58,461 bases of DNA, taken from the IMG/VR virus record IMGVR_UViG_3300033417_000009. One strand, given 5' to 3'. Position 1 is the first letter of the stretch, and each line of letters begins with the position of its first letter. Source of the stretch: a virus. Positions 322 through 55,921 of this stretch are shown here, in pieces. A model generated the notes under the pieces. That model was not told where the DNA came from. It was given only the letters and a program-made list of their open reading frames with translations, and did no database searches. A program made the position numbers and the translations under genes.

Positions 322-3300
322 CTACGGAGTGTTAGTTGGCGTGCTGGTAGGTGTGCGTGTGGGTGTGACGCTGCGAGTTTTGGTTGGGGTCTCGGTACGT
401 GTGGGCGTCCACAGTGGGCCGATGGTGTTCAACACCACCTGCGCAGGAACCACTACGTGAGTCGTGGGCGTAGGCGTGTTCTGGCTCGTTTGCACCACAG
501 GCACAGCACTCGGTGATGCGAGCATGGTAGGTGTCGGGCTGCCGCCCGGCCCGAATGTTGGTGTTGGAGCTGTCATGGACTCCCGCAGTACACGCACGAA
601 AAAGGTCGCGGCGGGCAAGAAAGTGTTGGCGCCTACTGCGCACACACTCACGAGCACCTGGTCAGGTCCACTTACCATCGCTTGCCACAACAACGGGGCG
701 GATAGGAATTGCTGTGGAGATGTGATTGCCACCATGCCAAGCTCAGCACCCACCACCGTGGTTGTGTAGTTAGCGCACTCGCCGCTGTTGACGAACCGAA
801 AGTCGGTGGTCACAGTTCCGGTAAGTGGCCTCAGTTCCCATTCAATGTTTGGTATCGTGCCAGAAACGTTGCCGCCTAACCTCGTGCCTATGGTAAGTGC
901 CTCCCCATCAGCATCCGGCTCGCTAAGCTGTTTGATCTTGTTGCCGCCACCATCCGCATCGGCGGTAAGGGTGAAATCGCGTACTGGCCCGGGCGTCAAC
1001 ACCACCTCGTCCCAACCCCAAGGCATCGTCAACAATAAGTCGTATTCATCAAAGCCGGTTAATGTGATCGCAGAAAGCGCAGGCGTGGGCGCTGGCGTCG
1101 GCTTGCCCAGCAACAGGCCCAGGTCCACCGGCCCGGCCAACGGCAACTGCACCACACTTGCTGCTCCGTTTTCCACGCTCACATGCACCACCGTACCGCC
1201 GATGCCCTGTGCCCCGGCGGGCAGGAAACCATCCGCAGTCGTCACCCACGTGCGTATAGATGGGCGCATGAGACAGTTTTCTGTGGTGGCTTGCGTGTAA
1301 CGGATCTCAACACTCACGCGCCTATTTGCGGCTGCTAACCCCGCGCTACCATAAACACGCCCAGTGAGCGCCACCGGGTTGCACGCAGGTGTGAAAGTCG
1401 GCGATGGGGCGGTTACTACCGGAGTTGGTGTTTCGGTAGGTACTGGCGTCAAAGTTACCGTTGGTGTTGGGGTGTCAATCTGGAACTGAAAACGAGCCAC
1501 GCCGATGCTTTTGTCGTCGAGGTCAGTGGGAAGCAACGTGGCTTCCCACGTGAACACAAGATCTCCCTGCCGCGCTGAGATCACCGAGCCCCAAGCGTGT
1601 TGTCCGCACACCTGGTCAGGTACATCGTGTTCCCCACCTTTCGGCGTACCATCTTCGTCAAACCTGCGGAACACTTGCCGCTGCAACCCGGTATCGTCTG
1701 TCGTCCATGTGATTACAAAGTCACTGCTTTGCTCGTGAGTAACCGGGTGTACAGCGATATTGATGGCAGTCGTAGGAATAGCAAGTTCAAAAAAAGTCTG
1801 AGTGCCAGTCTGTACTATGTTGGCCAATGTGACATCGCCTACCAATGTTCCCGATACCGATATTCGTTGAAAACCAACGCCAATCCCGTCAGCGTCAGCT
1901 ATGGTTGCAACCAATACCACCGTGCCATCTGCTGCTACTGACACGCCACCTACGTTGTTAATACCCGCAGGTGCTATTGGTTGTAGAACTTGGGTTCCAT
2001 CTGCGTTGTATCGGTACACTACAACGCTTGCCAATGTGTTGCTGGACCACGCGACTGCGCAGTCACCGGCATCGTTACAAGAAATCTTTGGTAGTGTTGT
2101 ATCTACGTCCAACACTTGCGTTGGGCTAAGCGGTACACCGGCCCATGTATACCGTCTGACTGCAACGTCCGCACCTTCGTTATCTAACCACGCAACAATG
2201 AACCCGTTTACATGTGCTGCTACAACAGGGAATTGTTCTTTGTGCGCGCCCCCGCTGTTCACAAAGAAATCATCTTGCACCAGCACACCTGCCGCGTCCC
2301 AAATCTTGCAAAACACGTTCGTGCGTACAAGGCGCGGGGACTGCCAACAAATAACTGTACGCCCAGCAGCGTCCTGCGCTACCGCCGGTCTGCGGTTATC
2401 GTACACAACATTACTTGATACGATCGTTTCACCTGTGATGGCAGCTAGAACTGCATCGAAGTCACGAACATACACAGTGTCGGGTGACGGCGACACGCTT
2501 GTCCACACTACTTTTGACGTACCAGACGCCGTGGTTGCTGCTGCACAATGCTTCTGGGCGCCAGCAACAGTCTCGTTCACCAGCACATCACTCTTTACCT
2601 GCCCGGGGCGGGGTGTGCGTGTTGGTAGGCACGGTGTGCTTGTTGGTGTAGGCGTGTCGAATTGGAATTGAATGGCTTCAATAGACGAATGCTTCGCGCC
2701 CCATTGGTCCTGCGTTTGCACACTTTCCCACAAGAAAGTGTAGAGACTGTCATCGGTACAGGCGAGAACCACATTACGCTGGAAACCATCCCGCGTGCTA
2801 TTCACCGCCCACGGCCCTTCCGCCAACGTGCCATCCACCCTGAACTTTGCGGCCCACACGCTGGACTCGCTGCCATCGCCAAGGTCAGCGCCAGGGTTCA
2901 GAGTGTCGTCTAGAAAATCAGACCACGTCACGACGAAGTCACCGGAAATTTCGGCGCACACAGCCGGTGCACTCCGCTCTGCCACCACATCCGGCACTCC
3001 GCTGTCTTCAATGACCTCCAATTCTGCAAGAAGCCCTGTACCTGTATTGGTCATGCGTCGTGCTTGTACATTCTGGTTCACACTGTCATCTGTTTCCCAC
3101 ACGATCACAAAACGGTTCCCATCCTCATGGCTAACCGATGGCGAGAACTGACTGTCTTGCGCCGTTCCCACGTCGAACAAAGGGGTTGTGATGGCAGGTG
3201 CGCTATTGAGCGCGAGGCCCCGTACGGCTTGGATTACGCTCAGCGACGGGTTTCCGGAAATCAACATCGCATCATCATCTACACCCGCTTGCGCGTCCAC

Positions 3301-6189
3301 GCCCGGCTCAATTTCAAGGTTGGCAGTGTCGCGCAACACAACATCGCCTGACGTTGGTCCAGCCCCGTCAAATGCCCGTGCCAGGATACGGCTCGGGTAA
3401 GCTGCGGTGTTGACCGCCTCTTCCCACACCACCACGAAATCGTCCCTGTCTTGCGGCCACGAAATTATTGAGGGGGATACATCAAAGTTCGTGTTATCTC
3501 CCGGCACAGTGAACTCGGCGCCAGCGGTAGTCACGCTCGTCACCCGACGACCCACCACATCAAACAGCGTTGGGCCGGTGTCCTGAGACCACACCACCAC
3601 AAACTCACCGCTTGTGGAGGTAGCGGCGACCCGGTGCTTTTCCCGCAACACAAACTTTACAGAAGCCCCAGTAGCATTGATGGTAAATTGGGCGTCACTT
3701 GGCGTAGCGGCCAAGTCCAGCTCTCTCCCTACAATGTTCGCGCTCCCGCCACCGGCCTCATCCCAAATCGCAAAAAGCAGGTCGTTATCTTTGCTGTAAG
3801 CAACCGCTGGGTGTGACCGTGACGTGCCGGCGTCAGACCCCGTGCTCACCTGCCGCTCGTCACCCACTTGGTGCGGCCGAGGGGTAAATGTGGGCAGGCT
3901 GGTAACTGACGCAGTGGCAGTCCCCGTGTTTGTGCGCGTGGGCGTTTGCGTTGGTGTGTCTGTGGGGGTGCTCGAAGGTGTGCCTGTACTCGTGGGTGTA
4001 TCCGTGGGAGTTTCTGTTGGCGTTTGTGACGGGCCGGGCGTGGGGGTGCCAGTGATAGTAGGGGTGTTCGTAATCGTTTCTGTTGGCGTAACAGTAGGAG
4101 TTGCGGTCGGGGTAGCGGTTAGCGTAAACGTCGGCGTTGCCGTTGGCTCTGCCGCCACCAACAACAACTGCGGCCTCTCCCCGACAACGCTCCATTCTTT
4201 TGAGCGAAAAAGCGCGTTGTTGTAAAACTGATAGTCCTGTGCCGCAGCTTTCCTCACAAGCCATCCTTCATTCGCTTCTGCGCCGCTAACGAAGTCTTTC
4301 ACGTCATCGGTTACATCAAACTCGAAGAAGCCGAACGGAGTAAATGCATTCATCAAACTCACCGTGGTCGCTACAGAGTCTGCGTGCCCCGGCGTGTTAA
4401 GCCCGTTCCACGTTGCAGGACATGCCGTCGTCGGGCATCTCCACGTGGCCTCTGCTTCAACCCACGGCGTGATGATTCGGTATACTTCCTGCTGTATGTC
4501 GTCGGCGCCCCAAAACTTGTTATTAGTTTTGTAGTAGTACAACCGTAGTTTGGCCTGCTGAATAACGCGCCCACCAGTTTCTACTGCTTGCATCTCAGCC
4601 GTGTTGAAGCGAATAGCGATGCGGCGAAATTGCCAGATCTGTAGGAAATCCTTGGTGCTAAAATTCCTGTTTAAGTAAAAGGAGTTGAAAAAAGTGTCAG
4701 CTTCCGCGGTCAATGTTGTGTTCACAGCGCCAACCGGGGTTTGCGTTGCCGTGACTGTAATCGTGTTCTCTGGCGTGGGCGTGTTAACGGTTGCTGTCAC
4801 CGTTGCCGTGAAAGAAATGGTAGGGGTTGCTGTAGGTGTTCGCGTGGGCGTCTCAGTAGGTGTTTGCGTCGGGGTACGGGTGGGTGTTGGCGTTGGCGTT
4901 GGTGTTGCGGTGGCTACAGTATCTGGGCACCCGGCGAACACGACGCCCCTCGCTTCGCTGGTTGTTACCACGTTAGCAGCAGCGGCGTGCGTTAGCTCAC
5001 CTGTGAAAGGGGAGCTGACCAGTGAAGCGGTGCCTCCAGCCAACCCAACTGCGCCAATGTCGGAAGAACTCACAATCGTACGTCTTGTAACCTGACTCGT
5101 ACCGTCAGACCCGTAGCTAACTTCCCCGCCGATCACGTCGATCTGGTCAAGCCCGCTCATCAACACCACAGCACGGTTCGGCAACGCGCTCATCGCCAGC
5201 GACCAGGCTGTTCCAGTTATGGCTTCTTGCGAACCGCTCGCCGTATCATGTGCGCTAGGCCCGGTGGCTGCCAAAGGCCACACTTGCCCATCTGTGTCCA
5301 AGCCAAAACCCACCAGCACCCCGTTGTAACTACGGAGCGTGCCATTGCTACGGGCGTGGCGTACGGTCACTGTGTAGGCGCCGGGCGTCGCCAACGTGAG
5401 CGCCCCCACCAACGTTATCATTTCAGTTTGCGGTACAGCGGCCAACCGTACCTGAGTTGCTGCTACGGTCACGCCGTTGATTTGAAGGTCATAATCCGCA
5501 GTCAGCGGGGCACCACTATCTATCGTGGCTGACAACGACGCCATGGCTACCACCCGCGTGTCCGCTTCCGTCGTAGTCACGGAAGCAGAAAAACCGCTGA
5601 TGGCTGTGAGCAAGGGGCTAGTGGTTGTGACCCCGGTACCGTCAAGGTCGTCATACCCATGAGGTAAGGTCAGCGTTGTATCATAGCTCGTCAGCGGGAA
5701 AGCCACCACGTCTATGTTGTCGGTGGACAGCGTGCCCCCTGATGTCGCGTGCTGGAACTTGAATGTGCGTGCCCCGTCACTTTCTAGCCCAGGCCACAGC
5801 GAGACAACCACGCCGTTGCTGTAATCGCCGGTGCCTGGTATGTACCGCTCCAATTGCCGGGTCATCGCTGCGGTGGTTTCGCCGCCGCTGGCGCCATCCA
5901 ACGTAACCGCCCACGCCCCAGTTTCCCCGCTCCCCGCAGTGAGAGCCCCGTCGAAGGACGCAAAAGCCAACACCGAGTCTCCTACCTGCGGCACGGCTAC
6001 CGTTACTGAGTAACCGGTGTCTTCAAGCGTTGCGCTGGTGGTAGTATCGACTGTGTCAGTAGACAGGCGTTGGATATCGAGACAACTCGCCAGTGGGGTG
6101 GGCGTCTGCGCATACACGCTCAACCGAGCCATCAGCAAGATTGCCGTAACCAGAAGCGTTTTCGCGCTCATCGCCCGCATCACACTCAT
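322..6189 (-). CDS. Giant secreted multi-domain protein (1955 aa): Sec signal peptide, Pro-Thr linkers, DNRLRE-like domain, two arrays of FVVxW...RRF propeller-like repeats, C-terminal fibre-like module
   Basis: Uninterrupted ORF. The N-terminus [30 protein letters not shown] resembles a Sec signal, and its ATG overlaps the upstream stop (ATGA). There are at least 6 (TPx)n linkers and about 13 repeats such as [14 protein letters not shown] and [15 protein letters not shown]. The motif [21 protein letters not shown] is also present. Confidence 0.85.
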
Positions 6190-9100
6190 CGTACTACCAC
6201 ATAGTAAGTCATCATGGGCGCTGTCGTGGCCCGAATGGCGCACAGTCGCACCGCTACTTGCTCAATTGGTAGAGAAGCGGGCAGGACAAAACCGTCGTAC
6301 CACACGTCCGGCACAAAACCAGCCGGTGAAATGAAAACGGCCATGCCCTGCCGCGCACCGAGTACATCAAGGACCTCAAACACGCACTCGCCGGTAGCCA
6401 GCGCTCCAGTGTTGAAAGTTACCGTTCCCAACAACAGAGGTTCCGCCAACGTCGGGTACGGCCACACACCAGCGAGCACGCCGGTAGCCGCCTGGCCGTA
6501 GGGGATAATGTCGCCGTCTTCAGTAGCAGCGCCAATATCAGTGATCTGGTGACCGCTGGCAATGCCATCTTGCGCCAAGGTGAAGTCGGTTACGGCCCCG
6601 CGCACCAATGTTACCCTGTCAGTGCTCTGGGTTGCGGTCAGGGTGTACTGACCCACGCCGGGCACCACCGCGAGCGCTGTAACGGCTTCTGCCAACGCCG
6701 GGATCTGCGCCACGCCTACCAGCGTGTGCGCCGAGACCGTGGCTCCTTCGTTTTTGAGAGGAGGAATCAACACTCGCATTGGTTGCTGTGCCCCTTCGAG
6801 CGAGAGCTGCACTACGCTCCCGGCTACGGTTGTCGCCGTGACGGGCAGGAAGCCGTAGTCATCAAGAGTCACGGTTTTGGATGACACGTGGATCAAACAC
6901 CCATTCACCAATTGCTCTTCAGTGGTGTCAATGTGGAAACGCCTGCCCGCAGCAAGTTGCCCGTCCACGTCCACCACCTGCCCTGTCAGCCGCACCGACA
7001 CGCAAGAGCTGGTAGGGACAATGTCATCTTGCGTAAGGTCGCGTCTCGGGGTCACGCTTGCCGTAGCGGTAGCCGTAATCGTAGGGGAAGGCGTGTTCAA
7101 AACTACTCCGACTACCGCCACAGCCGTGGGTGAGGGCGCTGGCGTGTGTGTCAACGTAGGTGTGCTTGTAGGTGTGCTTGTAGGCGTGTTCGTTGGAGTC
7201 CTGGTAAAGCCAAATTGAGGAACCTGTGGCACAGCGACCAGCGACGGCGTTGGCGTCGGCGTGTTCAGCGATACCATCGGGTCCGCCTGTATTGAAGGTG
7301 TCGGCGTAAACGTAGCAACGGAAAGCTGTGAGAGTTGGATGCCGGTGCCCATCACCGCGTTATCGCAAGTCACGTCCATCGTCGAAATCTGCCGTACCGG
7401 GTCCACAGTTGGGAAATCGTCTTTTTGCACTGTGAATTGCAGGTAACAGTGTGCCGGTGTGTCGGCCGGGATTGTGAGTGTGGAATCGGGGGTGAATGTA
7501 ATCACGCCCGCTGCTTCCACAGCGGACCACGTGACCCCACAGGTAGTGGTGATCGAATCTTGGTAACTGATAGAATCGTTGTTGCCGGTGCAACCGCCCG
7601 GGGGGTCAGTAGTCTTGCAGTTGAGCGTGAAGGTAGCTTGCGTCAGGTCGCCCTCGGTCCCCCCTGTTACGGCGGCTAACCCGAACGTAAGCCGCACATC
7701 ATCAGTCTCCCCCACGGTATCAACCGCCGGTTGGTTCTCGTAGGTAATCGCCAGCACGACGTTACAAGTCCCGAGCGCGGACGTTGAAGTAGGCGTGGCG
7801 CTTGGCGTGCTCGTGGGTGTGTCAGTGGGTGTGCTTGTGGGGGTAGCTGTCGGCGTTGAAGTGGGCGTGTCAGTAGGCGTGCTTGTAGCCGTCCCAGTAG
7901 GGGTATCGGTGGGCGTGCTCGTGGGCGTGCTCGTGGGAGGTGACGCTGTTGGGGTGTTCAAAGACACTTGCGGCGGCACCGCGACGCTTGGTGTGGGTGT
8001 GCTCGTGTTTAAAATCGCCTGCACCACGACCGCCGCCGTGGCGGTCCTTGTAGGAGAAGAAGTTGGCGTGATTGATGGCCCTGCCACCTGCACTATCGGC
8101 ACCGCTGTTGCTGTCGGTGTAGGAGATTGCGTGTTCAAGATTACCGCTACCACCGGCTGCGGGGTTGCTGTGTTAGAAGGGGTAGGTGTGTTCAACACGG
8201 CTTGCATCACCGACTGTGGAGTCATCGTGTTCGTAGGTGTGTTGGTAGGAGTGTCCGTAGGCGTGCTGGTTGGTGTTGCAGTTGGCGTGTTCGTAGGGGT
8301 ATTTGTTGACGTGCCCGTTGGTGTAACTGTAGGAGTGATCGTTGGCGTGTTCGTAGGGGTTTGTGTCGGCGTACTCGTCGCGGCGGGGGTCAACGTGGCC
8401 GTCGGTGCCTCGAACGCCGCCTCGAACTGCACCGCGCTGGCGCGCAATGTGTCGCACGCGCGGCGCACGCCAAAGTCAGACGCATCGAGATTCACGCAGG
8501 TCCACGCTGCCGCTGTGTCAGGGTCAACCGTGTAAAGCGTGAACTTGTCTGCGTAAGATGTGTTCGTTGAGATCGCAGCCGCAGCGACGGAATCAATCAC
8601 ACTAGCGGTACACGAGCCGCTGCTGCCTGTGGTCCGCGACGAGATCAGATTCAGGCCAGCGTGGATCGGCTCCGAGATCCCCAGCGTGGCGCACGAGTCG
8701 TGCGAGAAGATGCAGTTCACCGTGCTGCCGGTTGTGATGTATGTCGTGTCGTCGTCGGTCGGAGGACCCTCGTCCAGGCACAGGTGCTCCGATGCCTCGT
8801 CGCAGCCGCTAGTGGTCCACCCCATATCACAGGTGCCGGTGCCGGTGGTTGGTAAGGGCATGATTCGAACGTTGCCGGGGTACTCAGTGCCGGTGTGTAC
8901 ATCAACGTCGTCGAAGTTGATGCTGGCCGTCACGTTCGCGAGGGTGTTGCCGACATCGACGCGGGAGTAGTTGACGCTAAAAGATGTGGTCGCGCAGGCG
9001 TCGATTGCCTCGATGAGGTATCCGTTCGCGTCGTACAGATTCAGGTAGACGAGCCCCGTGCCGAAGAAGTCGCGGACCGCCCGGAACTCCACCCTGTACC

Positions 9101-9560
9101 ACATATCGAGGGCCAGCGCTGTCGATGTGGTAGCGCACGCACTCCACCCGCTAGCGTACGTGCCGATGTCGAGCGTGCGGTCCGTGTTCAGAGCAATACC
9201 GTGCCCATTAAGGTTGTCCGTCACGACATACTGGTAGATGACCGTATCGTTCGCGTCGGGAGCAGTCGTGATGCGGAGTCGAAAGGAGGAGCGCAGGTGA
9301 TTATCGTTGTAGCCAGTCTGCTGCACCCGGCACTGCGCGGCGGACGGATTCCACTGGTAGCACCGCCCAGTGAAGCAATCGGTCGCGGTGCTGGTGCAAG
9401 CTCCCGAGACGGTGCCGTTTTGTACGCCTGCGCCGTTGGCCTCGAACGACATGTGAAACAGGTGCGTCGCGTGGGCAGGACTTGCCACTACCCCTAAAAA
9501 GATGGCGCGAACCAGCACACGGCTAATCCACGCCATCTTATCTCGGGGGAAAGTCGCCAT
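6186..9560 (-). CDS. Giant secreted protein (1124 aa): signal peptide, LamG/ConA-like N-domain, long Pro-Thr/LNTPTP linkers, Cys-rich Ig-like domain, C-terminal fibre-like module
   Basis: Uninterrupted ORF with signal-like MAWISRVLVRAIFLGVVASPAHA/T (an alternative start is at 9536). PT linkers span roughly 7100-7260 and 7790-8400. The last ~272 aa are colinear with residues near the C-terminus of the 322..6189 protein. Confidence 0.85.
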   Translation of the reverse strand: MATFPRDKMAWISRVLVRAIFLGVVASPAHATHLFHMSFEANGAGVQNGTVSGACTSTATDCFTGRCYQWNPSAAQCRVQQTGYNDNHLRSSFRLRITTAPDANDTVIYQYVVTDNLNGHGIALNTDRTLDIGTYASGWSACATTSTALALDMWYRVEFRAVRDFFGTGLVYLNLYDANGYLIEAIDACATTSFSVNYSRVDVGNTLANVTASINFDDVDVHTGTEYPGNVRIMPLPTTGTGTCDMGWTTSGCDEASEHLCLDEGPPTDDDTTYITTGSTVNCIFSHDSCATLGISEPIHAGLNLISSRTTGSSGSCTASVIDSVAAAAISTNTSYADKFTLYTVDPDTAAAWTCVNLDASDFGVRRACDTLRASAVQFEAAFEAPTATLTPAATSTPTQTPTNTPTITPTVTPTGTSTNTPTNTPTATPTSTPTDTPTNTPTNTMTPQSVMQAVLNTPTPSNTATPQPVVAVILNTQSPTPTATAVPIVQVAGPSITPTSSPTRTATAAVVVQAILNTSTPTPSVAVPPQVSLNTPTASPPTSTPTSTPTDTPTGTATSTPTDTPTSTPTATPTSTPTDTPTSTPSATPTSTSALGTCNVVLAITYENQPAVDTVGETDDVRLTFGLAAVTGGTEGDLTQATFTLNCKTTDPPGGCTGNNDSISYQDSITTTCGVTWSAVEAAGVITFTPDSTLTIPADTPAHCYLQFTVQKDDFPTVDPVRQISTMDVTCDNAVMGTGIQLSQLSVATFTPTPSIQADPMVSLNTPTPTPSLVAVPQVPQFGFTRTPTNTPTSTPTSTPTLTHTPAPSPTAVAVVGVVLNTPSPTITATATASVTPRRDLTQDDIVPTSSCVSVRLTGQVVDVDGQLAAGRRFHIDTTEEQLVNGCLIHVSSKTVTLDDYGFLPVTATTVAGSVVQLSLEGAQQPMRVLIPPLKNEGATVSAHTLVGVAQIPALAEAVTALAVVPGVGQYTLTATQSTDRVTLVRGAVTDFTLAQDGIASGHQITDIGAATEDGDIIPYGQAATGVLAGVWPYPTLAEPLLLGTVTFNTGALATGECVFEVLDVLGARQGMAVFISPAGFVPDVWYDGFVLPASLPIEQVAVRLCAIRATTAPMMTYYVVVR

Positions 9561-9665: not shown

Positions 9666-10259
9666 TTAGAGGAACTCAACCCGAATGCCAGTGACTTTGG
9701 CGGTCGCTGCAAGGTTACTAGTGCAAGAGCCGCTGTTGTCGCGGTCCACTTTGATGACGAACGGGAACCCAGCGCAATTCGTTCCAGTACAATCGGCCAG
9801 CAACGTGTCACGGTACAGCGTTGCTGACCCTGTAAATGACGATTTCATCAAGGCGTTCGCGCCAATGTTCTGCGTTGGATTTGTAGCTGTGGTGTTCGTA
9901 GGAGTAATAGCATCCCAATCACAGGTGCTCACACCGGTTGTGCAAACAGCATTCGCCACATTCCAGCACACGTTTGACGCTGATGCGCTTGTAGTGTGCC
10001 ACCAAATGTGGATCTGGAACGTGGTATTTGCATCCGGGTTCACCATTCCCATTAGAGTAAACGCCTGCGTCCCAGTCTGCGTACAGTCCATCGTAGTGTA
10101 ACGATGATTCGTGCCCACGTTCACGGTGCGCGTGCAGGAATTGGAAACCGCAGTTTCTAGCGCCCCGCCCGGGAAAAAGATGTCGCTTGCCGCCACCGGC
10201 AGTGCCAGCGCCAGCGCCAACCCCACCGTTGTCACCACCTGCCAAAAATACTTTCTCAT
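9666..10259 (-). CDS. Secreted hypothetical protein (197 aa)
   Basis: SD gggaggag lies upstream of the ATG. The signal peptide is MRKYFWQVVTTVGLALALALPVAA/SD. The protein is Cys/Thr-rich, and its C-terminal half resembles that of the 13652..14659 protein (VCW motif, C..C pairs). Confidence 0.7.
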   Translation of the reverse strand: MRKYFWQVVTTVGLALALALPVAASDIFFPGGALETAVSNSCTRTVNVGTNHRYTTMDCTQTGTQAFTLMGMVNPDANTTFQIHIWWHTTSASASNVCWNVANAVCTTGVSTCDWDAITPTNTTATNPTQNIGANALMKSSFTGSATLYRDTLLADCTGTNCAGFPFVIKVDRDNSGSCTSNLAATAKVTGIRVEFL

Positions 10260-10312
10260 TCGTCTCTCCTCCCGTGTAGTGTCATGGGCCTCACGGCCAT
10301 TGTTGTGAGCTC

Positions 10313-10341
10313 AGGGTACTTCACCACGCGAAAAGTGTCAA
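10313..10341 (-). promoter_or_regulatory. Candidate sigma70-like promoter (TTGACA-N17-TACCCT) upstream of 9666..10259
   Basis: The minus strand reads gtgaTTGACActtttcgcgtggtgaagTACCCT. The -10 is weak. Confidence 0.3.
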
Positions 10342-10755: not shown

Positions 10756-10764
10756 CGTCGCCCC

Positions 10765-11085
10765 CTACTGCCCAGGAAACTCGTGCAGTAGCCTCGTGCC
10801 CCCAGGCACTTCTGCTGCGGCACTATCAGCACACGCCGCCGACATGAGCCCGGCCTCAAGGCCGTCGCGGCAAGCAGTGAGCTGCGGGATCACTCCGTCC
10901 ATCACACGCTTGGCAATGGCAGCCTCCGAGCAGTTCTTCTCTGCTTGCGCTTGACATTCGGCCTGTGATGCCACAGCCACCGTGCCGACCACCAGCGGCG
11001 ATTCGAGGGTGGACACCAGGTTCTTGTAGGTAGTACAGGCACTCAACACCACGGCACATACGATCGTTAACACCAACTTTTGCAT
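10765..11085 (-). CDS. Lipoprotein (106 aa), possible spanin-type or exclusion protein
   Basis: SD aggaggaaaag precedes the ATG. The lipobox is MQKLVLTIVCAVVLSA/C. Confidence 0.6.
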   Translation of the reverse strand: MQKLVLTIVCAVVLSACTTYKNLVSTLESPLVVGTVAVASQAECQAQAEKNCSEAAIAKRVMDGVIPQLTACRDGLEAGLMSAACADSAAAEVPGGTRLLHEFPGQ

Positions 11086-11199
11086 CTTTTCCTCCTGTCG
11101 GCAGGGCTAGGAGGGACAGCCGCACCTGCCCCTCGTTGCCTTGCGTTGTCACGGACTGTGGTTAGACTCGTTTGTCTACTCCTGCGTTTTGAAGGGAAC

Positions 11200-11451
11200 T
11201 TACCGCTTTCCGCGTGCGGGCTTCCGGCGGTGGTGGGGGACCATCCCCCGTTTCGGGGCAGGGGAGTGCCCCGAAGATCGTGGACGTTGGATAGTGTTGA
11301 CCTGCACTTGCTGGATGTTTTCGAGGGAAACGAGCGGGCGCCCCTTACGATCGTAGATGGAAATGCACCCGGCTTGCGCTAGCTCCCGGTTCGTGCAGGT
11401 AGTGCGTACCTCAAAGGTGATGATCTTGGCTTTCGCTGTTTTCATTGGCAT
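11200..11451 (-). CDS. Hypothetical basic protein (83 aa)
   Basis: The start overlaps the endolysin stop (TGATG). Sequence begins MPMKTAKAKIITFEVRTTCTNRELAQAGC... Confidence 0.5.
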   Translation of the reverse strand: MPMKTAKAKIITFEVRTTCTNRELAQAGCISIYDRKGRPLVSLENIQQVQVNTIQRPRSSGHSPAPKRGMVPHHRRKPARGKR

Positions 11452-11795
11452 CAGCGTACCCCCTTGTGCTCAAATGAAAAGTGGTTGCCGTCCGGGCGAG
11501 AAAATCGGCCGCCCCACCGCGCTAGCTCATGCTGGCGCTCCCACCACTCCCCCAGCGGTGTGTAGGCTTCGGATGTGGTCAGGTAGGTGCCGTCTTTGAA
11601 CAGGTTCAAGTCGATGGCAAGGCGCTGGGTGTGCAAAGAGTTGGAGATGCCTCGGCCGTCCCTAGCATACATGGCTGCTATTTCAGGGGCGCGGTAGGCT
11701 TCACCCAGTGTTACATCAAAGCCCATCCCACGGGCTACTATCAGCAACCACCCGATGTGCTGCGCAAACAGGGATTGTTTTTCTCGTAACGTCAT
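11451..11795 (-). CDS. Endolysin, peptidase M15 (VanY / L-Ala-D-Glu peptidase-like)
   Basis: Zn-ligand motifs of the M15 family are present: SNSLHTQRLAIDL (H..D) and WGGRFSRPDGNHFSF (terminal H). It is 114 aa and lies among membrane-protein genes. Confidence 0.8.
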   Translation of the reverse strand: MTLREKQSLFAQHIGWLLIVARGMGFDVTLGEAYRAPEIAAMYARDGRGISNSLHTQRLAIDLNLFKDGTYLTTSEAYTPLGEWWERQHELARWGGRFSRPDGNHFSFEHKGVR

Positions 11796-13209: not shown

Positions 13210-13243
13210 CGCCCGTCGTTCTCCACGAAGCGGGTGCGGCCCG

Positions 13244-14659: not shown

Positions 14660-14739
14660 GGCCCATGGAATGAGTCGTTCGAGATCATGAAAAAATCGGT
14701 GTTGAACGTGCCCATTTCCGCGGCGCGCACACGCCCCCC

Positions 14740-14822
14740 GGGGTAGGGTAAGGTATCTCCGGCGCCTTGCGGCGCAAGGGTTTCCAGCTCCCACCGGCTT
14801 CTTTTCTGGGTCACCCTACCCC
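14740..14822 (-). promoter_or_regulatory. Structured element in the probable leader of the minus-strand operon
   Basis: The 10-bp arms ggggtagggt (14740-14749) and accctacccc (14813-14822) enclose the hairpin ccttgc-ggc-gcaagg (14765-14779). Confidence 0.3.
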
Positions 14823-36037: not shown

Positions 36038-36208
36038 ATGATGACCAAAGACGCTGAAAAACTTGTCTGGGAAGCACTTGAGGAAGCGCGGCAGCGCGTG
36101 AAACCTGACGTAAAAAAGGAGATGGAGGGAGAAATAATTGGTCAGGATATCCTGAACTTCCACATGAGGGGACAGGAGCACAACCAGCGGGCTACTGTAC
36201 TACAGTAA
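36038..36208 (+). CDS. Possible last small ORF of the plus arm (56 aa)
   Basis: Hand-translated: MMTKDAEKLVWEALEEARQRVKPDVKKEMEGEII... It overlaps the convergent gene end by 17 nt and is below the track cut-off. Confidence 0.3.
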   Translation: MMTKDAEKLVWEALEEARQRVKPDVKKEMEGEIIGQDILNFHMRGQEHNQRATVLQ

Positions 36209-36785
36209 GTCGAGCTGACCGTGCCGTAGCAGCGACCGCAACCACGGCACACCGTCTCACGATAACCAACCCTGAAAATTGGTCAATGTAAGAGGCAGCC
36301 ATCACACCATTGGGCAGCGCTACTGTTTGCAACGTTACTCCGACTACTTCCCCAAGGTCAGCCTCGGGGACGGCAAATGCATCCTCGGTGCAGGCGCCTG
36401 GCGCCACGAACGTGAACGCCGGTAACGTCATATCCATTGTGATGAGGTTCACCCCAGTCGCGTACGTCACCGACCCCGGGTACGCTCCTACAAAGGTACT
36501 ACTCACAACCGCTGTCCCGTGCGTCAGGGCCTCGCCTGCGACCGTACCAGGGGCCACGTTTTTGATCTGACGCCCCCCGGCTTCAGCATCCCTCTCCAAG
36601 TGGAAACCCGTCACGTCGCCTGGAGAAAGTGATGTAGTTTGCCCCGTGGTAGATGCAGCGAGTTCAAAGTCCTCACCAACGTCGACGCGCACAGAGCGTA
36701 CGCGAGGTGCCCACCAAGTGATTGCCAAGGCCGCTACCGCAAACGTCAGCATTCCCAGCACTATCCAGAACCACCAGCGTCTCAT
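36192..36785 (-). CDS. TM-anchored protein (197 aa) carrying the fibre-like module shared with the two giant proteins
   Basis: N-terminal TM WWFWIVLGMLTFAVAALAITWW. GFHLERDAEAGGRQIKNVAPGTVAGEALTHG...GACTEDAF...LGEVVGVTL...VIVRRCAVVAV is colinear with [31 protein letters not shown]...GECANY...LGMVAIT...[10 protein letters not shown] of the 322..6189 protein. Confidence 0.65.
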   Translation of the reverse strand: MRRWWFWIVLGMLTFAVAALAITWWAPRVRSVRVDVGEDFELAASTTGQTTSLSPGDVTGFHLERDAEAGGRQIKNVAPGTVAGEALTHGTAVVSSTFVGAYPGSVTYATGVNLITMDMTLPAFTFVAPGACTEDAFAVPEADLGEVVGVTLQTVALPNGVMAASYIDQFSGLVIVRRCAVVAVAATARSARLTVVQ

Positions 36786-36787: not shown

Positions 36788-37891
36788 TCAGATCCCCAGT
36801 GCCAACGCCGTTAGCAGAAAGTCATCTATGTCAGTTGCCGCGTTGTCAACACGGTAGTAGTCAAGATCCAATCCCGTGAGTTTCCTTGCCGGTGGTAGCA
36901 TAACAAGGTCAGGCCACGCCACAATGACCTTTGGGTTTGACGCGGTCAACACCGTCGCAAAGATGTGACTGTCAAAGCCTGCATCCCACGTGATCCAATC
37001 TACAATACTATCTTCCGTGGTGCTCATGGGTAGTGTGCTCGGTTCAGAAATGGCCCACTTCACTTTCAGCGCGTCCACAATGGTCCCGCTGTGGGGAATT
37101 ACAAAGGTGCCCTTAGCGCTAGCCCCGTTCTTGTCTATGACCAATTGGGAGAGACTCAGGAGCTGTTGGAGAGCAATTGAGGACCATTGCCCCGGCGCCC
37201 CTGGTGTCCATGCCAGGACCTGGTCAAGCAACGTCTCGCTGGGAGCTACCGCAGATACCGCCGTCCCCTGCAATTTCTTGACCGTTGCATTCGGAAACGA
37301 TCCCCCAAGATCACCAGCGAAGTTCATGTCCGTTTGCCCGGTCCCGCCGTGGCTCACCGGCACCACGAAGCGCCCGGTCGGATTATCAAGTTGCAATTGC
37401 AGTGGGTAGCCACCTGCGGCAGCGCTGGTGGTCCCACCCACCGCCGCAAACTCCACATACTTCAACACGCCGGCCAAGATTCCAGCGTTCAAAGTAACCG
37501 TGGTGATGCTCCCGGCTACATTGGCATCTCTAATAGTAGCAATGGCCGTGGTCCCGTCCGAAAACGTGGCTCGTACGTTGCGCCCTACTTGCGTAATCTT
37601 TGGTGTAACCCAATCCCCCACTAGCGTGAACACGGTGGCGGATACTTTAGCGGGAGCGTTCGGCGATGGCGCCGACTCCAGGCCACTGTAATTTAACCAC
37701 CCTGAGTTCACGCTAAGCGCCCGCACCTCGCTTTTAATCTTGCGCAACTCAGCCGAGAGATCATTTTCCCCGCCCGGCGTCATCAAGTCCGCGAGCTGCG
37801 GGAGGTTGTTATCATTGCTGCTTGCATCTGTTTGCCAGCTTGGTCCGTCTGCCGGGACCGCTGCCAACTTATCAACCGTGGGATTTGCCAT
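36788..37891 (-). CDS. Tail fibre protein (367 aa)
   Basis: It is the last large structural gene. ELRKIKSEVRAL and PVSHGGTGQTDMNFAGDLGG resemble conserved tail-fibre motifs. Confidence 0.6.
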   Translation of the reverse strand: MANPTVDKLAAVPADGPSWQTDASSNDNNLPQLADLMTPGGENDLSAELRKIKSEVRALSVNSGWLNYSGLESAPSPNAPAKVSATVFTLVGDWVTPKITQVGRNVRATFSDGTTAIATIRDANVAGSITTVTLNAGILAGVLKYVEFAAVGGTTSAAAGGYPLQLQLDNPTGRFVVPVSHGGTGQTDMNFAGDLGGSFPNATVKKLQGTAVSAVAPSETLLDQVLAWTPGAPGQWSSIALQQLLSLSQLVIDKNGASAKGTFVIPHSGTIVDALKVKWAISEPSTLPMSTTEDSIVDWITWDAGFDSHIFATVLTASNPKVIVAWPDLVMLPPARKLTGLDLDYYRVDNAATDIDDFLLTALALGI

Positions 37892-51195: not shown

Positions 51196-52308
51196 CTAGC
51201 CGCTAGCCAGCAAGGTGTCCAGCAAACCAGGATTCTCCCTGTCAATCTTTGCAAGCTGGCGTTCGCTCATGTTGATGATGTCTTCCCGGGTCAACTGCGG
51301 CTTGCTGGAAGTGCTCCCACTGGTGCTAGAGAGCGAACCCTGCTCGACCTGTGACCGTTGCTTCGACTCCCGCACCTTTTCCACTGCCGTTTTCGGCTTC
51401 GTGATTGCTTCTGGGACCTGCGGTGCTACCGCTGGAGCTTTCCCGGACCACCCATCGGCCACCGCTACCTCGTAGAGTATCTCCGGCAACGGCCTTCGCG
51501 TCTCCTGCGCCACCTGTAACGCAACACCAAGCCGCTGTTGAAGAACCTGTTCCATCATCTGATCCGGGACCCCCGCCGCTTTCAACCGCGCCGTCTCTCG
51601 TTGCTCCAGAAAATTCATGGCGTCATCGTAATCCGCTTTCTGCGCCTTGACCGTTGCGATCTGCGCGTTCAACACTTGCTGCTGTTGGAGTGCGTGCTGT
51701 TGCTGCGCCAAGTAAGCAATTTGCTGTTGTGCTTGTATCGTCTGCACCCGACTCGCCTCTAGCGGGTCTTCTTGCCACAGTTGAGCCAGTTCTGTGTCTG
51801 TGTACGGTCGATCGAGGCCAGGGCGACCCTGCTGCTGGTCCTGCTGCCCCCGCCCCTGTAACGTGGATAGCAACTGCTGGAATTGTTGCTGCTGCTGTTC
51901 CAGCGCCACGAACCGGGCTTGCGCCTCATCGCGTTCCCGTTGCGCCTGTCGCAGGTCGGACCACCGAGGGTTCTTTCGCCTCTTCTTCTCGGCGTCAGTT
52001 TCCTGCGCAGTCTCCATGCCCTCCAGGTTTTCATCCCCTTCCGGCTCACCCTCCGGCTCTTCTTCGGGCTCCGGTTCTGCTTCCGGATCTGGAGTAACCT
52101 CGGGCTTCGGCGTGTCTCCTTCCCCATCTGGCGGGGCCTCCGGCTGTACCTCAACACCGTCTGACTCTTCTGGGGGCTCCTCTGGCAACTCCGGCTCTAC
52201 CCCAAAGAAGTTGTCATGGGCCGGTTTAATCGCGGGCTCCGGCGGCGCCTCAGCGCCAAGCGTGTTCGCACTTCCCTGTACCTGTGCCGCGGCAGCTCTC
52301 TTAGCCAT
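51196..52308 (-). CDS. Scaffolding protein (370 aa)
   Basis: It lies between the portal and capsid genes. It has an acidic PE-rich N-region and a Gln-rich coiled coil (ALEQQQQQFQQLLSTLQGRGQQDQQQ). SD gagaggaga precedes the ATG at 52308. Confidence 0.7.
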   Translation of the reverse strand: MAKRAAAAQVQGSANTLGAEAPPEPAIKPAHDNFFGVEPELPEEPPEESDGVEVQPEAPPDGEGDTPKPEVTPDPEAEPEPEEEPEGEPEGDENLEGMETAQETDAEKKRRKNPRWSDLRQAQRERDEAQARFVALEQQQQQFQQLLSTLQGRGQQDQQQGRPGLDRPYTDTELAQLWQEDPLEASRVQTIQAQQQIAYLAQQQHALQQQQVLNAQIATVKAQKADYDDAMNFLEQRETARLKAAGVPDQMMEQVLQQRLGVALQVAQETRRPLPEILYEVAVADGWSGKAPAVAPQVPEAITKPKTAVEKVRESKQRSQVEQGSLSSTSGSTSSKPQLTREDIINMSERQLAKIDRENPGLLDTLLASG

Positions 52309-54505
52309 TCCTGTTGTCTCCTCTCTTCTGTTGTAGTTGTGCCAACGAGCGCACAATCGTTTGATCTTCCTGCGAACGCTGGCGCCCACCTTCCCGCGCC
52401 CCGTCCGCGAACGTCTTCACCAGTTGCATAAACTCATCGCTGGCGTTCTTCATCTCAACTATACCCACTTGCTGTTGCTGGATGCGCTCATCGCTCTGGA
52501 TGTCCATAGCTTTTAGTTGAGCCTCAATCTGCGCCCGTACCTTGTCGTCCTTGATCTTCTCTACCGTTGCCCACGCCTGTGCTTCTGCCAGCGCTGCTTC
52601 CGCCGCAACCTTTCGCGCCCTCGCCTGGATCTCAGCAAAGGATTGCGGTTTCCCACGCCCGCCACCACCAAGCCCTTGCATCACCGCTTTCTGCTCCGCT
52701 TCAGCGTGATCAGTCATCGCTTTCTTCAACTTACGTCGCAGGGAAGCAGGTAGCGGTAAGAAATCAATGAACTCCGGTAGCATGTTGCCTGTGCGAATGA
52801 GCATCGGGGCCAGGTTTGCAAGCGTGCGCATCCACTCCTCACGCACGTGTGGGTCACGGGTGCCTTCATCCAGCACCACGTCATATTCCAGAAAGAGGGG
52901 CGCCTTCGTAAGCTGGATATACTGCCCGTCATCTTGCCCGCCCACGCGCACCACCCGGTCGTCAGCCACCAATTGCAGGTGGTCAAACACTGTTCGCGCT
53001 TCGTTGAAGCGATAACGGCGTAGTGATTCAAACTCCACCGCCAGCAACAACTGTGCGCTTGCCTGCCGTTGTACAAGCGTCACCTGTGCCTCGTCGCCGG
53101 TGCCCATACCCATACTTACTTCTGGGTCAATGCCCGTGACCTCGCGCAACATCTGGGCGCAAGTCGTGAACATCTGCACGCTACCTTCTGGCAGTGAAGG
53201 GCCTTTCTTTTCTACTACTGACCCACGAGACAACGCCCCATCGTTCAAGTAAGTGATGGAGCCAGTCTTAGCCCAAGTGTCCTCAGCCTGCTGTGGGTTG
53301 TAAAGGGCGCCGATCTCAGCCAGTAACCCGCCCTTGGCGTTTCGGGTGATGACCTCCATCACCTGATTGGCAAACTTGGTCATGTACCGCTGCGGGTCCA
53401 CCAACAAGCGCATGAAACCGTACCACAGCTTCTTATCTTCATCCCACTGCCCAGTCATGCAGTTGTAGGTGAACCGTTTGCCGAGCAGCGGGAATGGCCC
53501 GGCCACCACGTTGTTGCCGATCAAGATGGCACGCTTGTAGTCGCGGCCGATGACGCGGTCATGCTCGATCTCAGGCGAGACCGGGTTGCCCCTCGCAATC
53601 AACGCTGGTGCTAGCACCTTGCGCCACTTGCGCTCATAGTTCTCAAACTCCTCTTCGGCAAGCCAATCGTCTTCGCCGGTGATGGGGTCTACAAAGTAAA
53701 CACCCATCACTTCTTCGTAGAATTGGAACTCCACCACCTCAACGTTGCCGGGGCGTAGGGTAGACCACCCAGGATGTTCGCCTTCCACCGGCTCAGCGCT
53801 CACCTCGGATGTGAGATTGGAGCGCCCGGGCATGGCGTTCTCGTTGTCGCGCCCAGTCGCTGCGAGGATGGCACCCCGATGCTTGTGGCCCCACCGAATC
53901 AACGCCTCAGCCTTAGTAATTTGCCGAATGCGTGCTACCCACTTTGCATCTTCCAGACAGGGACGTGTGCTATTGATGTCCCACGCCATCTCATGACCGT
54001 CAATCCTGGAAATAGTAATGAGACCTGCTTCATCCCGTGAACGGTCGAAGGCAACATCAGTCCACCCCATCCCTCGCGCTACCATATCAGTGAATGCACG
54101 AGAACGCTCAGCGTCACCATTCGAGGATTGCACTACCCAGTTGTGCATCTTGGTAGTAAGATCGGCCGCACCCTGTTGCTTCTCATCCATCACATTCCGA
54201 GGCAGAAACTCCACCTCCGCACGGCTCTTCGTTTCCAGCCCGTACAAGTAACGAAGCCACTTCGATGCCGCGTTGAACACCGCGTTGGGGCGCCCATCAA
54301 GGCGCAGTTGTTCTTCATCAGCGGGTGTGAAGTGGTGGCCGGCAAGAAAACGGTCGATCTCCCCTGCCTGCTTACGCCACCGGCTCACAGCCTCTTTGGA
54401 GCTACTGATCTGCCGCCATGCCCATACCGCAAAAGGATTCCCCGTGGCTTGTACTGTAGTTTCTCGGCCTACTTCCAGCACCCGTCTGTCTTCAAGGTTC
54501 GCCAT
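52301..54505 (-). CDS. Portal protein (734 aa)
   Basis: Called from its size and its position between the terminase and scaffold genes. The podovirus-type portal appearance is judged by eye, with no named motif. Confidence 0.7.
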   Translation of the reverse strand: MANLEDRRVLEVGRETTVQATGNPFAVWAWRQISSSKEAVSRWRKQAGEIDRFLAGHHFTPADEEQLRLDGRPNAVFNAASKWLRYLYGLETKSRAEVEFLPRNVMDEKQQGAADLTTKMHNWVVQSSNGDAERSRAFTDMVARGMGWTDVAFDRSRDEAGLITISRIDGHEMAWDINSTRPCLEDAKWVARIRQITKAEALIRWGHKHRGAILAATGRDNENAMPGRSNLTSEVSAEPVEGEHPGWSTLRPGNVEVVEFQFYEEVMGVYFVDPITGEDDWLAEEEFENYERKWRKVLAPALIARGNPVSPEIEHDRVIGRDYKRAILIGNNVVAGPFPLLGKRFTYNCMTGQWDEDKKLWYGFMRLLVDPQRYMTKFANQVMEVITRNAKGGLLAEIGALYNPQQAEDTWAKTGSITYLNDGALSRGSVVEKKGPSLPEGSVQMFTTCAQMLREVTGIDPEVSMGMGTGDEAQVTLVQRQASAQLLLAVEFESLRRYRFNEARTVFDHLQLVADDRVVRVGGQDDGQYIQLTKAPLFLEYDVVLDEGTRDPHVREEWMRTLANLAPMLIRTGNMLPEFIDFLPLPASLRRKLKKAMTDHAEAEQKAVMQGLGGGGRGKPQSFAEIQARARKVAAEAALAEAQAWATVEKIKDDKVRAQIEAQLKAMDIQSDERIQQQQVGIVEMKNASDEFMQLVKTFADGAREGGRQRSQEDQTIVRSLAQLQQKRGDNRNG

Positions 54506-54514: not shown

Positions 54515-54829
54515 CTAGTGCTCTACCGCCCTCGTCAGCAGGGAGAATACACCATCCGGGTCACGGATTACCACTGCTCCAAACAGGGCGTCACGGGCCA
54601 CGGTACGGCGCACCCCGCTGGCTTTTATCGTGCGCGTGTCAGGTACGTAGTGCTCCATCACCAGGCCTTCCCCATCTTCGGTGAACCCAACCGGGCACAG
54701 GTAGCCGGGTATCTGTCTCACTTGCCACCGTGTGTCAGGGTAGAAGCGCTCTGCCAACAGCTTCACGGCAAGTGGCAACCCTTCATACCACCCGCATAGA
54801 TCAAGGTAATCAGCAACGGTCATTTCCAT
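54515..54829 (-). CDS. Hypothetical protein (104 aa)
   Basis: It is coupled to the TerL nuclease ORF (ATGA overlap). Confidence 0.55.
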   Translation of the reverse strand: MEMTVADYLDLCGWYEGLPLAVKLLAERFYPDTRWQVRQIPGYLCPVGFTEDGEGLVMEHYVPDTRTIKASGVRRTVARDALFGAVVIRDPDGVFSLLTRAVEH

Positions 54830-55698: not shown

Positions 55699-55921
55699 CT
55701 GCGGGATCTCCTGTCTCTGCCCGTTCGCGCAACGTTCGCGCCGTTGCTTTCTCGAAGCAAGGGTCACAATACGTGACCGTGGGTAGGTGGCATACCGGCT
55801 TCGTGCAACGTACGCTCTCAAACTGCGGCAAGCTGCACGCCAAGCACTTGTAGTGGTAGTGCCCGGCGCGGGGTTTCGGCGTATCAATTTGCGGCGCTTG
55901 CGGCGCTTGCGATTCGTTCAT
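55682..55921 (-). CDS. Cys-rich 79-aa ORF inserted between the TerL ATPase and nuclease fragments
   Basis: AGGAG lies 6 nt before the ATG. HYHYKCLACSLPQFESVRCTKPVCHLPTVTYCDPCFEKA has three Cys pairs. It is in the third frame and overlaps both TerL fragments. Confidence 0.55.
   Translation of the reverse strand: MNESQAPQAPQIDTPKPRAGHYHYKCLACSLPQFESVRCTKPVCHLPTVTYCDPCFEKATARTLRERAETGDPAGVAGR

Follow-up and report, generated by a model that had tools for sequence, protein, structure and literature searches.

Giant signal-peptide proteins with a fibre-tip-like C-terminal module in the late block of an uncultivated podovirus

Introduction

What use would a tailed phage have for very large proteins that begin with signal peptides? 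The prevailing picture is that tailed phages build their fibres inside the cytoplasm, and that the proteins they export are all small, for instance lysis factors and exclusion lipoproteins. The question is raised by IMG/VR virus record IMGVR_UViG_3300033417_000009, whose 58,461-nt sequence (the window, meaning the whole stretch analysed) carries on its minus strand, at positions 322-9560, two adjacent genes, ORF1 and ORF2, for signal-peptide proteins of 1124 and 1955 amino acids (aa). Both giants are real late genes of a cassette of variable modular proteins, which is found in a small phage lineage between the endolysin cluster and the terminase genes. With moderate confidence, they are considered to be Sec-exported, envelope-docking proteins derived from fibre tips and used for receptor masking or envelope remodelling; conserved signal peptides, invariant Cys pairs and Cys-knots, and a domain repertoire typical of secreted proteins favour export, as judged from sequence.

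Layout of the Two Giant Proteins

ORF1 and ORF2 together occupy 9239 nt, or 15.8% of the 58,334-bp genome. The TGA stop of ORF1 overlaps the ATG of ORF2 by 4 nt (cgATGAgt); an initial annotation of this DNA had described the two as translationally coupled, and the giant pair of the related phage L014 has the identical 4-nt overlap (10001-13744 / 13741-16563). ORF2 is 1955 aa long when counted from this ATG; gene callers start at an upstream GTG (6243), which gives 1973 aa. The plus-strand open reading frames across the region are GV-rich mirror images of the Pro-Thr (PT) linkers and not genes. The parts of the two proteins are listed below with the evidence for each, which includes hidden Markov models (HMMs) and AlphaFold2 (AF2) models.

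6186..9560, minus strand: ORF1 (P0025), 1124 aa; signal peptide, N-terminal region, long PT/LNTPTP linker, Cys-rich domain, linker, C-terminal module (open reading frame list, homology, composition)
9468..9560, minus strand: ORF1 signal peptide, aa 1-31, ...ASPAHA|T (sequence read directly)
8409..9467, minus strand: ORF1 N-terminal globular region, aa 32-384, no family match (Pfam, PDB, fetched loci)
7776..8408, minus strand: ORF1 PT linker, ~210 aa, of 'hydrophobic strand + LNTPTP' units, with 12-nt periodic DNA (composition)
7311..7775, minus strand: ORF1 Cys-rich domain, aa 596-750, mobile (phmmer)
6189..7025, minus strand: ORF1 C-terminal module, aa 846-1124; beta-sandwich, fibre motif DFTLAQDGIASGHQITDIGAATEDGDIIPYGQ, terminal beta-domain with a Cys pair (homology, AF2, Foldseek)
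322..6189, minus strand: ORF2 (P0024), 1955 aa; signal peptide, N-domain, DNRLRE domain, two propellers, module, PT tail (open reading frame list, HMMs, homology)
6109..6189, minus strand: ORF2 signal peptide, aa 1-27, ...RLSVYA|QTPTP, its ATG overlapping the ORF1 stop (sequence anatomy)
4930..6108, minus strand: ORF2 N-terminal region, aa 28-420, no family match (Pfam, fetched loci)
4150..4734, minus strand: DNRLRE domain, HMM match aa 497-676 (NF033679, Disaggr_repeat)
2662..3894, minus strand: propeller array 1, aa 766-1176, ~6 FVVxW blades (homology, unit HMM, AF2/Foldseek)
1480..2601, minus strand: propeller array 2, aa 1197-1570, ~7 blades, paralogue of array 1 (homology, unit HMM)
580..1383, minus strand: ORF2 copy of the shared module, aa 1603-1870 (homology, HMM)
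322..579, minus strand: ORF2 PT-rich C-terminal tail, aa 1871-1955 plus stop (composition)

Three phages yielded both giants. In each, the first giant stops on the final residue of the module, and the second continues past it into a PT-rich tail (322-579 in the window, within 13741-16563 in L014 and within 8970-12821 in L020). The earlier claim that both giants end in a shared module is borne out as to the sharing and as to the end of ORF1; ORF2 runs on for a further 85 aa of PT tail.

Signal Peptides and Linkers

Both giants display the anatomy of a type-I signal peptide, with a positive n-region, an h-core of 8-10 aa and a small-x-small site; cleavage is predicted at ...SRVLVRAIFLGVVASPAHA|T in ORF1 and, from sequence anatomy, before Q in ORF2. 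Such calls were made heuristically on sequence (charged n-region, h-region of 7-15 aa, small-x-small c-region). The same anatomy opens all 23 of the 23 cassette proteins from the window and from phages L014, L018, L020 and L028/29, four or five phages in all, their h-cores having a median length of 12 aa (range 8-18) and leading into an AxA-type or small-x-small site, and the N-terminal domains behind these 23 signal peptides are mutually unrelated. The cassette proteins show every mark of Sec export that can be read from sequence, and they retain it even where different domains follow, which makes functional export hard to avoid as an explanation. The Sec signal peptides noted at both starts in the initial annotation are one instance of a feature kept throughout the cassette.

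The long PT linkers lie where they had been reported, as judged by composition: aa 385-451, 533-595 and 783-814 in ORF1, and aa 420-485, 680-760, 1176-1196, 1570-1602 and 1873-1955 in ORF2. Several of them (7026-8408 in ORF1; 2602-2661 and 1384-1479 in ORF2) repeat a unit made of a short hydrophobic strand followed by (L/F)(N/D)TPTP, for example VMQAVLNTPTPS, VVAVILNTQSPT and VVVQAILNTSTPT, and the linker DNA has a 12-nt periodicity; both propellers terminate in FQFxxDTPTPT, and the 1283-aa giant of L020 terminates in ...FPIVALNTPTP. These units may serve in processing, glycosylation or strand donation.

The Shared C-terminal Module

ORF1 aa 813-1123 aligns with ORF2 aa 1563-1867 at 32% identity over ~310 aa (E 9e-17), and the module so shared is ~270 aa long. 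It consists of a prealbumin-like sandwich, a T7-gp17-type fibre motif (LxxDxxxGxxIxxLGxxxxxGDxxPxGQ...GDxxGxxPxPTL, its middle part being DFTLxxDxxxGxxIxxLGxxxxxGDxxPxGQ) and a terminal beta-domain of ~85 aa with a conserved Cys pair. The link to fibres is to be taken seriously because the module has both the T7 gp17-type motif and a terminal domain also seen on tailspike-like proteins, which agrees with the tail-fibre-like segment described earlier. In the AF2 model of the ORF1 module, the sandwich (predicted local distance difference test, pLDDT, 85-93) and the terminal domain are predicted with confidence. Foldseek gives the sandwich weak matches to prealbumin-like folds (aromatic dioxygenases, transthyretin; E 0.07-0.4), and Pfam gives it no match to PF13620; of the carboxypeptidase-regulatory-like sandwich first proposed, a fold-level likeness remains and the family assignment does not. 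The terminal domain aligns over 83-92 columns at a root-mean-square deviation of 1.5-2.4 Å (22-28% identity, E 1e-4 to 1e-3) with phage tailspike-type and uncharacterised proteins, including one pectate-lyase tailspike-type protein and one SGNH-hydrolase protein; annotated tail fibres, Bxb1 tail-tip chains and a Klebsiella phage depolymerase match more weakly. When the middle motif was used in tblastn, 13 of 15 weak matches, each individually insignificant, fell inside T7-like tail-fibre genes; the site matched is LDARGRRIVNLANAVDDRDAVPFGQL, ~125-150 residues into the fibre and ahead of an alpha-helical repeat stretch. A further sequence, GGDLxGTYPNPTV, was considered as a possible minor-tail motif of actinophages; tblastn did not bear this out, and it plays no part in the evidence.

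The module as a whole has no match in Pfam, NCBIfam or PHROG, none by sequence in the PDB (profile, E<=10) and none by tblastn among 50,697 isolate phage genomes (E<=10); a word-indexed homology search with the ORF1 module alone also returned nothing, NCBIfam holds no model for the terminal domain, and neither ORF1 nor ORF2 matches a PHROG tail family. An exhaustive profile search of 1.84 billion representative proteins with both module copies yielded only 85 matches. Twelve of these are full-length module homologues, nearly all built of a signal peptide, PT linkers, varied N-terminal domains (DNRLRE-like, Cys-knot modules, the same propeller repeat, a cohesin-like domain) and the module at or near the C-terminus; one appears to be N-terminally truncated. 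Four cysteines are invariant in the full-length alignment, two belonging to the sandwich (C8/C43) and two to the terminal domain (C214/C262), and the Cys-knot modules of the relatives contain up to 44 Cys. A second class comprises proteins of ~190 aa with a long, mostly Trp-flanked hydrophobic N-terminal anchor followed by only the middle motif and the terminal domain; in 12 such small module proteins the anchors have a median length of 18.5 aa. The third class has only the last ~85-100 aa in common, always at the extreme C-terminus (consensus ...GxC...VxGAxxGM...TVTVKVCAxxAxTPTASTYNVRVIQ-end; P0070-P0108, proteins of 114-1341 aa), and nearly all of its members have signal-peptide-like N-termini; 4 of 25 contain a pectate-lyase-type beta-helix, and two adjoin tail-fibre genes in phage contigs (L022, L025).

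A hand-made degenerate DNA pattern for the motif was found in 1 viral contig, in 0 of 185,579 reference genomes and in 3 metagenome contigs; the full-module homologues whose context was examined are all on phage contigs. The ~270-aa module is an undescribed family, and its ~85-aa terminal domain is widespread and likewise undescribed.

N-terminal and Middle Domains

The domain in the middle of ORF2 (aa 497-676) matches the DNRLRE model NF033679 over its full profile (1-162) with 59.5 bits against a cut-off of 34, and Pfam Disaggr_repeat (PF06848) with 34.0 bits against 33.9; it is homologous to the N-domain of P0033. The two propeller arrays are paralogous (26.5% identity, E 3e-11), and a repeat-unit HMM counts ~6 and ~7 repeats in them. 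Among their 23 homologues, which reach E values down to 1.5e-16, are bacterial exoproteins with the repeat GxFVVVW...GIFGQRFD...EFxVN, several of which also carry dockerin, SLH, T9SS-CTD, FG-GAP or HYR domains. From an alignment of 25 sequences, AF2 models the propeller as a single, compact all-beta domain (pLDDT 79; predicted template modelling score, pTM, 0.85), and Foldseek returns only beta-propellers for it (sialidases, a PL42 lyase, GH43/93 enzymes, YncE with TMt 0.72), these matches being at fold level only, with 8-14% identity. The globular modules strung along the PT linkers (DNRLRE domain, both propellers, Cys-rich domain) are of the glycan-binding type. No catalytic family or active-site signature was detected in the giants.

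The Cys-rich domain of ORF1 has a homologue in a stand-alone 231-aa signal-peptide protein of phage L019 (phmmer E 2e-12). The N-terminal region of ORF1 has no Pfam match at E<=10 (aa 32-232 and 233-384 searched), no sequence match in the PDB and no homologue in the fetched loci; that of ORF2 likewise has no Pfam match and no homologue in those loci. Cohesin and dockerin domains are absent from ORF1 and ORF2 by Pfam. In relatives, an L020 protein beside the endolysin (3976-5070) matches Dockerin_1 with 40.7 bits, and the giant P0028 has a cohesin-like N-terminal domain at 22.1 bits, under the cut-off of 24.1; these hint at a possible cohesin-dockerin assembly of exported phage proteins in relatives.

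Most of the domain picture drawn in the initial annotation is retained, namely the DNRLRE-like domain, the two FVVxW arrays akin to the propellers of giant exoproteins, and the Cys-rich domain, which is real and mobile. The LamG-like label found no support; neither PF13385 nor PF02210 gave HMM support even at E<=10, and there was no PDB sequence match. The domain searches called for there, looking for likeness to exported bacterial proteins, found it in the DNRLRE domain and in the exoprotein propeller.

A Variable Cassette in Related Phages

At least three other uncultivated phages have kept the cassette, its N-terminal domains shuffled. L014 and L020 have in common the order endolysin, small signal-peptide protein(s), giant, giant, terS-region, TerL and P22-type portal, and clusters of similar kind occur in L018 and L019/L028. 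The arrangements are as follows.

L014, first part: endolysin, 117-aa protein, lipobox protein of 146 aa, 192-aa signal-peptide protein, 1247-aa giant P0036
L014, continued: 940-aa giant P0027 (module plus PT tail), small genes, TerL, P22-type portal
L020: endolysin, dockerin protein, proteins of 194 and 196 aa, 622-aa giant, 190-aa protein, 1283-aa giant (module plus PT tail), packaging genes
L018: signal-peptide proteins of 1068, 1171 and 497 aa, and a further module ORF
L019/L028/L029: an unrelated 58,037-bp phage with signal-peptide/PT-linker proteins beside the endolysin

P0036 (1247 aa) contains Cys-knots, a long Cys-rich region, a propeller and the module; the proteins of L019/L028/L029 have only the sandwich of the module, plus the stand-alone copy of the ORF1 Cys-rich domain. 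A small protein directly upstream of ORF1 belongs to the cassette as well:

9666..10259, minus strand: 197-aa signal-peptide, Cys-containing protein (homology, E 6e-57 to L020 and 5e-32 to L014)

It is a conserved partner with 1-3 copies in relatives: L014 has one, and L020 has three paralogues. It has no known family or fold, and the idea that it is a further copy of the module was rejected (hhalign probability 0.2%).

Signal-peptide/PT-linker giants are absent from the regions fetched around the capsid genes of capsid relatives (37-47% identity), and because of this the cassette looks accessory. The description of the giants as unusual cargo for a phage is upheld, both by a module of no described family and by the lack of the cassette in the regions fetched from these distant relatives.

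A Third Copy of the Fibre Motif

The fibre motif and terminal domain occur a third time in the window, at the end of the structural operon and beside a fibre-like gene.

36192..36785, minus strand: 197-aa protein with a third copy of fibre motif plus terminal domain and a 23-aa Trp-flanked signal-anchor, last gene of the structural operon (hhalign 98.6%, E 7e-16; HMM E 1e-23)
36788..37891, minus strand: 367-aa fibre-like protein (GGTGQTD...GDLGGSFPNATV), candidate fibre of the virion, immediately followed by the 197-aa gene (homology, position)

The 197-aa paralogue, a member of the ~190-aa class of module proteins, has no Pfam or NCBIfam match. In the simplest synthesis of the sequences it may be regarded as the minimal form, a signal-anchor bearing a mini-fibre, of which the giants would be the elaborated secreted form. 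The 367-aa gene sits after the internal virion protein, which is the canonical fibre position, and its product is a candidate for the virion's own fibre; it has no isolate-phage match. L021 and L017 keep the arrangement: internal virion protein, a protein of ~360 aa, a motif/terminal-domain gene and then a strand switch. No classical tailspike was recognised elsewhere in the genome by PHROG or Pfam. Neither this third copy nor the partner gene at 9666-10259 figured in the initial annotation.

Genome and Late-Block Setting

The contig ends are an exact 127-bp direct repeat (1-127 and 58335-58461), and because of this terminal overlap the genome assembles as a complete circle with a unique length of 58,334 bp; the identical sequence, its identity confirmed, is present in two ENA assemblies, ERZ27256991 and ERZ27256989. 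PHROG, Pfam and precomputed matches place a podovirus-type structural block on the minus strand, with a large terminase, portal, major head protein, SU10-type adaptor, nozzle-like protein (509 aa) and internal virion protein (1023 aa). In close relatives the portal matches PF16510 (P22_portal). The phage is an uncultivated podovirus of P22-portal/SU10-adaptor type. Transcription runs from transmembrane (TM) proteins through the endolysin, a lipobox protein, a 137-aa protein and the 197-aa signal-peptide protein to ORF1 and ORF2, then round the circle through small proteins, terminase, portal and the remaining structural block, and ends with the internal virion protein, the 367-aa protein and the 197-aa paralogue (36192-36785). 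A 133-aa gene downstream of ORF2 straddles the circular junction. The neighbours of the giants are as follows.

10765..11795, minus strand: lysis-cluster neighbours as a whole (PHROG/Pfam, gene calls, sequence)
10765..11085, minus strand: lipobox protein (MQKLVLTIVCAVVLSAC..., ...VLSAC) of the lysis cluster (sequence)
11451..11795, minus strand: Peptidase_M15_4 endolysin (phrog_1768), upstream of the giants (PHROG, Pfam)
54829..57569, minus strand: large terminase, downstream across the circular junction (PHROG)
52301..54505, minus strand: portal, after the terminase (PHROG/Pfam)

The position between lysis cassette and packaging genes is as first described, with the endolysin upstream and TerL, portal and major capsid protein all downstream across the junction. 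The lysis cluster also holds a 200-aa protein with an N-terminal TM segment (12040-12642, minus strand); this protein and the lipobox protein may be spanin or holin components, which would point to a diderm host. Among isolates, every phage with a related capsid (<=43% identity) has a diderm host; a portal search of reference genomes revealed no prophage relative, the genome contains no tRNAs, and a promoter/terminator scan gave nothing above shuffled expectation.

The large terminase region (54829-57569) contains an intein-like insert (...GLGANL|CIAEGQRVLTAQGWVPIEHV ... VYDLEVEGDHCFCVESIFVGN|CVIDDPHKN). PHROG TerL models cover only aa 29-174 and 472-528 of the protein, and the nuclease half is a second ORF in another frame (54829-55887); relatives have a single TerL of 524-526 aa.

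Exported Proteins or Virion Fibres

As export-and-docking proteins, the giants would be translocated by Sec late in infection, their signal peptides cleaved and their disulfide-bonded folding completed outside the cytoplasm; they would not be pre-assembled on virions in the cytoplasm. The fibre-tip-derived module would then dock them on an envelope component, most plausibly a structure recognised by such a fibre tip, with the PT linkers keeping the lectin-like and propeller domains distant from this anchor. The envelope of the infected cell would end up coated, masked or remodelled; this might mask receptors or exclude superinfecting phages, keep progeny from binding debris, or assist envelope breakdown. 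That fibre-tip modules have been recruited as docking domains of exported proteins is the simplest synthesis. A more specific version is tentative: the fibre tip itself would have been turned into an export product, its motif and terminal domain placed either on a signal-anchor or on PT-linked lectin/propeller arrays of 1100-1950 aa, so that 'decoy fibres' occupy or remodel the receptor layer of the phage itself, with cohesin-dockerin pairing possible in some relatives.

Several points weigh against this proposal. The giants share the late, mostly structural direction of transcription with no detectable terminator or promoter separating them; the module is related to parts of virion fibres, and terminal-domain proteins lie in the tail-gene clusters of other phages. 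In a diderm host, Sec alone would take the proteins only into the periplasm, which is the minimum destination because the isolates with related capsids infect diderms and the lysis cluster contains a lipobox protein. The three module copies of the window phage are no closer to one another than to copies from other phages; their co-evolution within the phage was therefore rejected, and for want of such closeness there is no sign of copies tracking one fast-evolving receptor. Finally, we infer export of the cassette proteins from their N-terminal anatomy and its conservation, and likewise the docking target and the action of the propeller and DNRLRE domains, including any catalysis or receptor binding.

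The initial annotation had left two options, host-surface factors that are exported and virion fibres with uncleaved N-termini; the evidence favours the former, and the fibre kinship of the module nonetheless carries weight. Were the giants tail fibres or receptor-binding proteins, the module would attach to the virion or form the distal tip, and the variable N-terminal arrays would set host range; the N-termini would go unused for export, or exported fibres would join virions after lysis. The T7-gp17-type motif and tailspike-like terminal domain, the shuffling of domains against a constant module, which is typical of receptor-binding proteins, and the late-operon location beside packaging genes all agree with this, as do the lack of a classical tailspike elsewhere by PHROG/Pfam and the terminal-domain proteins that adjoin tail-fibre genes in L022 and L025. 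Even so, though a real rival, it is rather unlikely: a cleavable-type signal peptide opens every cassette protein whatever N-terminal domain comes next, where a virion-attachment domain would be expected the giants have signal peptides and then exoprotein-type domains with no PHROG tail match, invariant Cys pairs and Cys-knot modules poorly suit cytoplasmic folding, and the shafts of trimeric fibres do not resemble the flexible PT linkers, which span 20-210 aa. A separate fibre-like gene, moreover, occupies the canonical site after the internal virion protein, and the regions fetched from capsid relatives contain no such cassette.

Two other explanations accept export and assign it another purpose. 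The giants may be extracytoplasmic lysis accessories, exported before lysis to loosen or degrade an outer layer (capsule, sheath, S-layer, outer-membrane glycans) and so complete the work of holin, endolysin and lipoprotein; this is judged improbable. The cassette does lie next to a Peptidase_M15_4 endolysin and lipobox/TM proteins in four phage types, the best structure matches of the propeller include sialidases, a PL42 lyase and GH43/GH93 enzymes, and DNRLRE/Disaggr_repeat is named after a matrix-dissolving enzyme family; however, no catalytic family or active-site signature accompanies these fold-level matches, the free variation of domain content among related phages would be odd for an essential lysis step, and capsid relatives lack the cassette in their fetched regions. 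Less probable still is that the giants are host-acquired morons that play no direct part in the infection cycle, being secreted adhesins or scaffolds of cohesin/dockerin style that change how infected or lysogenic cells aggregate or form biofilms. Bacterial exoproteins do typically have PT linkers and modules of the propeller, DNRLRE, dockerin and cohesin kinds, and the cassette is variable and dispensable among relatives; yet the motif pattern is missing from the 185,579 reference genomes, the full-module homologues examined are all in phage contigs, and the genes lie in the late block in one orientation, coupled in translation. No lysogeny module turned up, none having been searched for.

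If the giants are exported decoys or envelope remodellers, they would represent a new route by which a phage manipulates the receptor landscape, with receptor-binding modules re-used outside the virion; as decoy fibres they would form a receptor-masking or envelope-remodelling system born from the receptor-binding apparatus itself. If they are virion fibres instead, an extracytoplasmic maturation of fibre proteins would be implied, which to our knowledge is not known for tailed phages. Either outcome defines an undescribed module of ~270 aa and a widespread C-terminal domain of ~85 aa, neither with a Pfam, NCBIfam or PHROG model.

Comparison with Known Systems

Literature searches on phage DNRLRE domains, signal-peptide tail fibres and superinfection exclusion or receptor masking brought up no description of such proteins; the nearest systems each share a part of the architecture. 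With T7 gp17-type fibres and tailspikes the giants seem to have in common the motif LDxxGxxIxNLxxxxxxxDAVPxGQ (through tblastn matches that are individually insignificant), a small C-terminal beta-domain as on tailspike-like proteins, and modular exchange. They differ in having a Sec signal peptide (a signal-anchor in the 197-aa paralogue) in place of the virion-attachment domain, PT linkers and exoprotein domains instead of a coiled or beta-helical shaft, and a conserved part that is C-terminal with the variable part N-terminal; their module also has no sequence-level match to isolate phages or PDB chains. Modular secreted bacterial glycan-binding proteins (cellulosome-style proteins, DNRLRE proteins and 'GxFVVVW...GIFGQRFD' propeller exoproteins) resemble the giants in signal peptide, PT linkers, DNRLRE domain and the same propeller repeat, and the dockerin and cohesin domains of the giants' relatives extend the likeness to the cellulosome style; unlike them, the giants are phage-encoded, belong to a late operon and end in a fibre-tip-like part whose motif is absent from reference bacterial genomes.

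Exported masking or exclusion proteins reportedly stand beside receptor-binding genes, as T5 Llp does beside pb5; Cor (phi80/N15), Sie2009 (lactococcal phages) and SieA (P22) are said to be further examples. They too are phage-encoded, extracytoplasmic or membrane-anchored and placed beside fibre or ejection genes, a likeness that applies especially to the 197-aa paralogue; the giants have no homology to them (no PHROG, Pfam or NCBIfam match). Known proteins of this type are small and mostly early-expressed or from prophages, and we know of no exclusion protein that is derived from a fibre tip or is 1100-1950 aa long. PblA and PblB of Streptococcus mitis phage SM1 are reportedly fibre-like proteins that serve as surface adhesins, have no signal peptides and reach the surface via phage lysis; they share neither the PT-linker architecture nor homology with the giants, and are like them in being large, related to fibres and acting at the cell surface rather than only on the virion.

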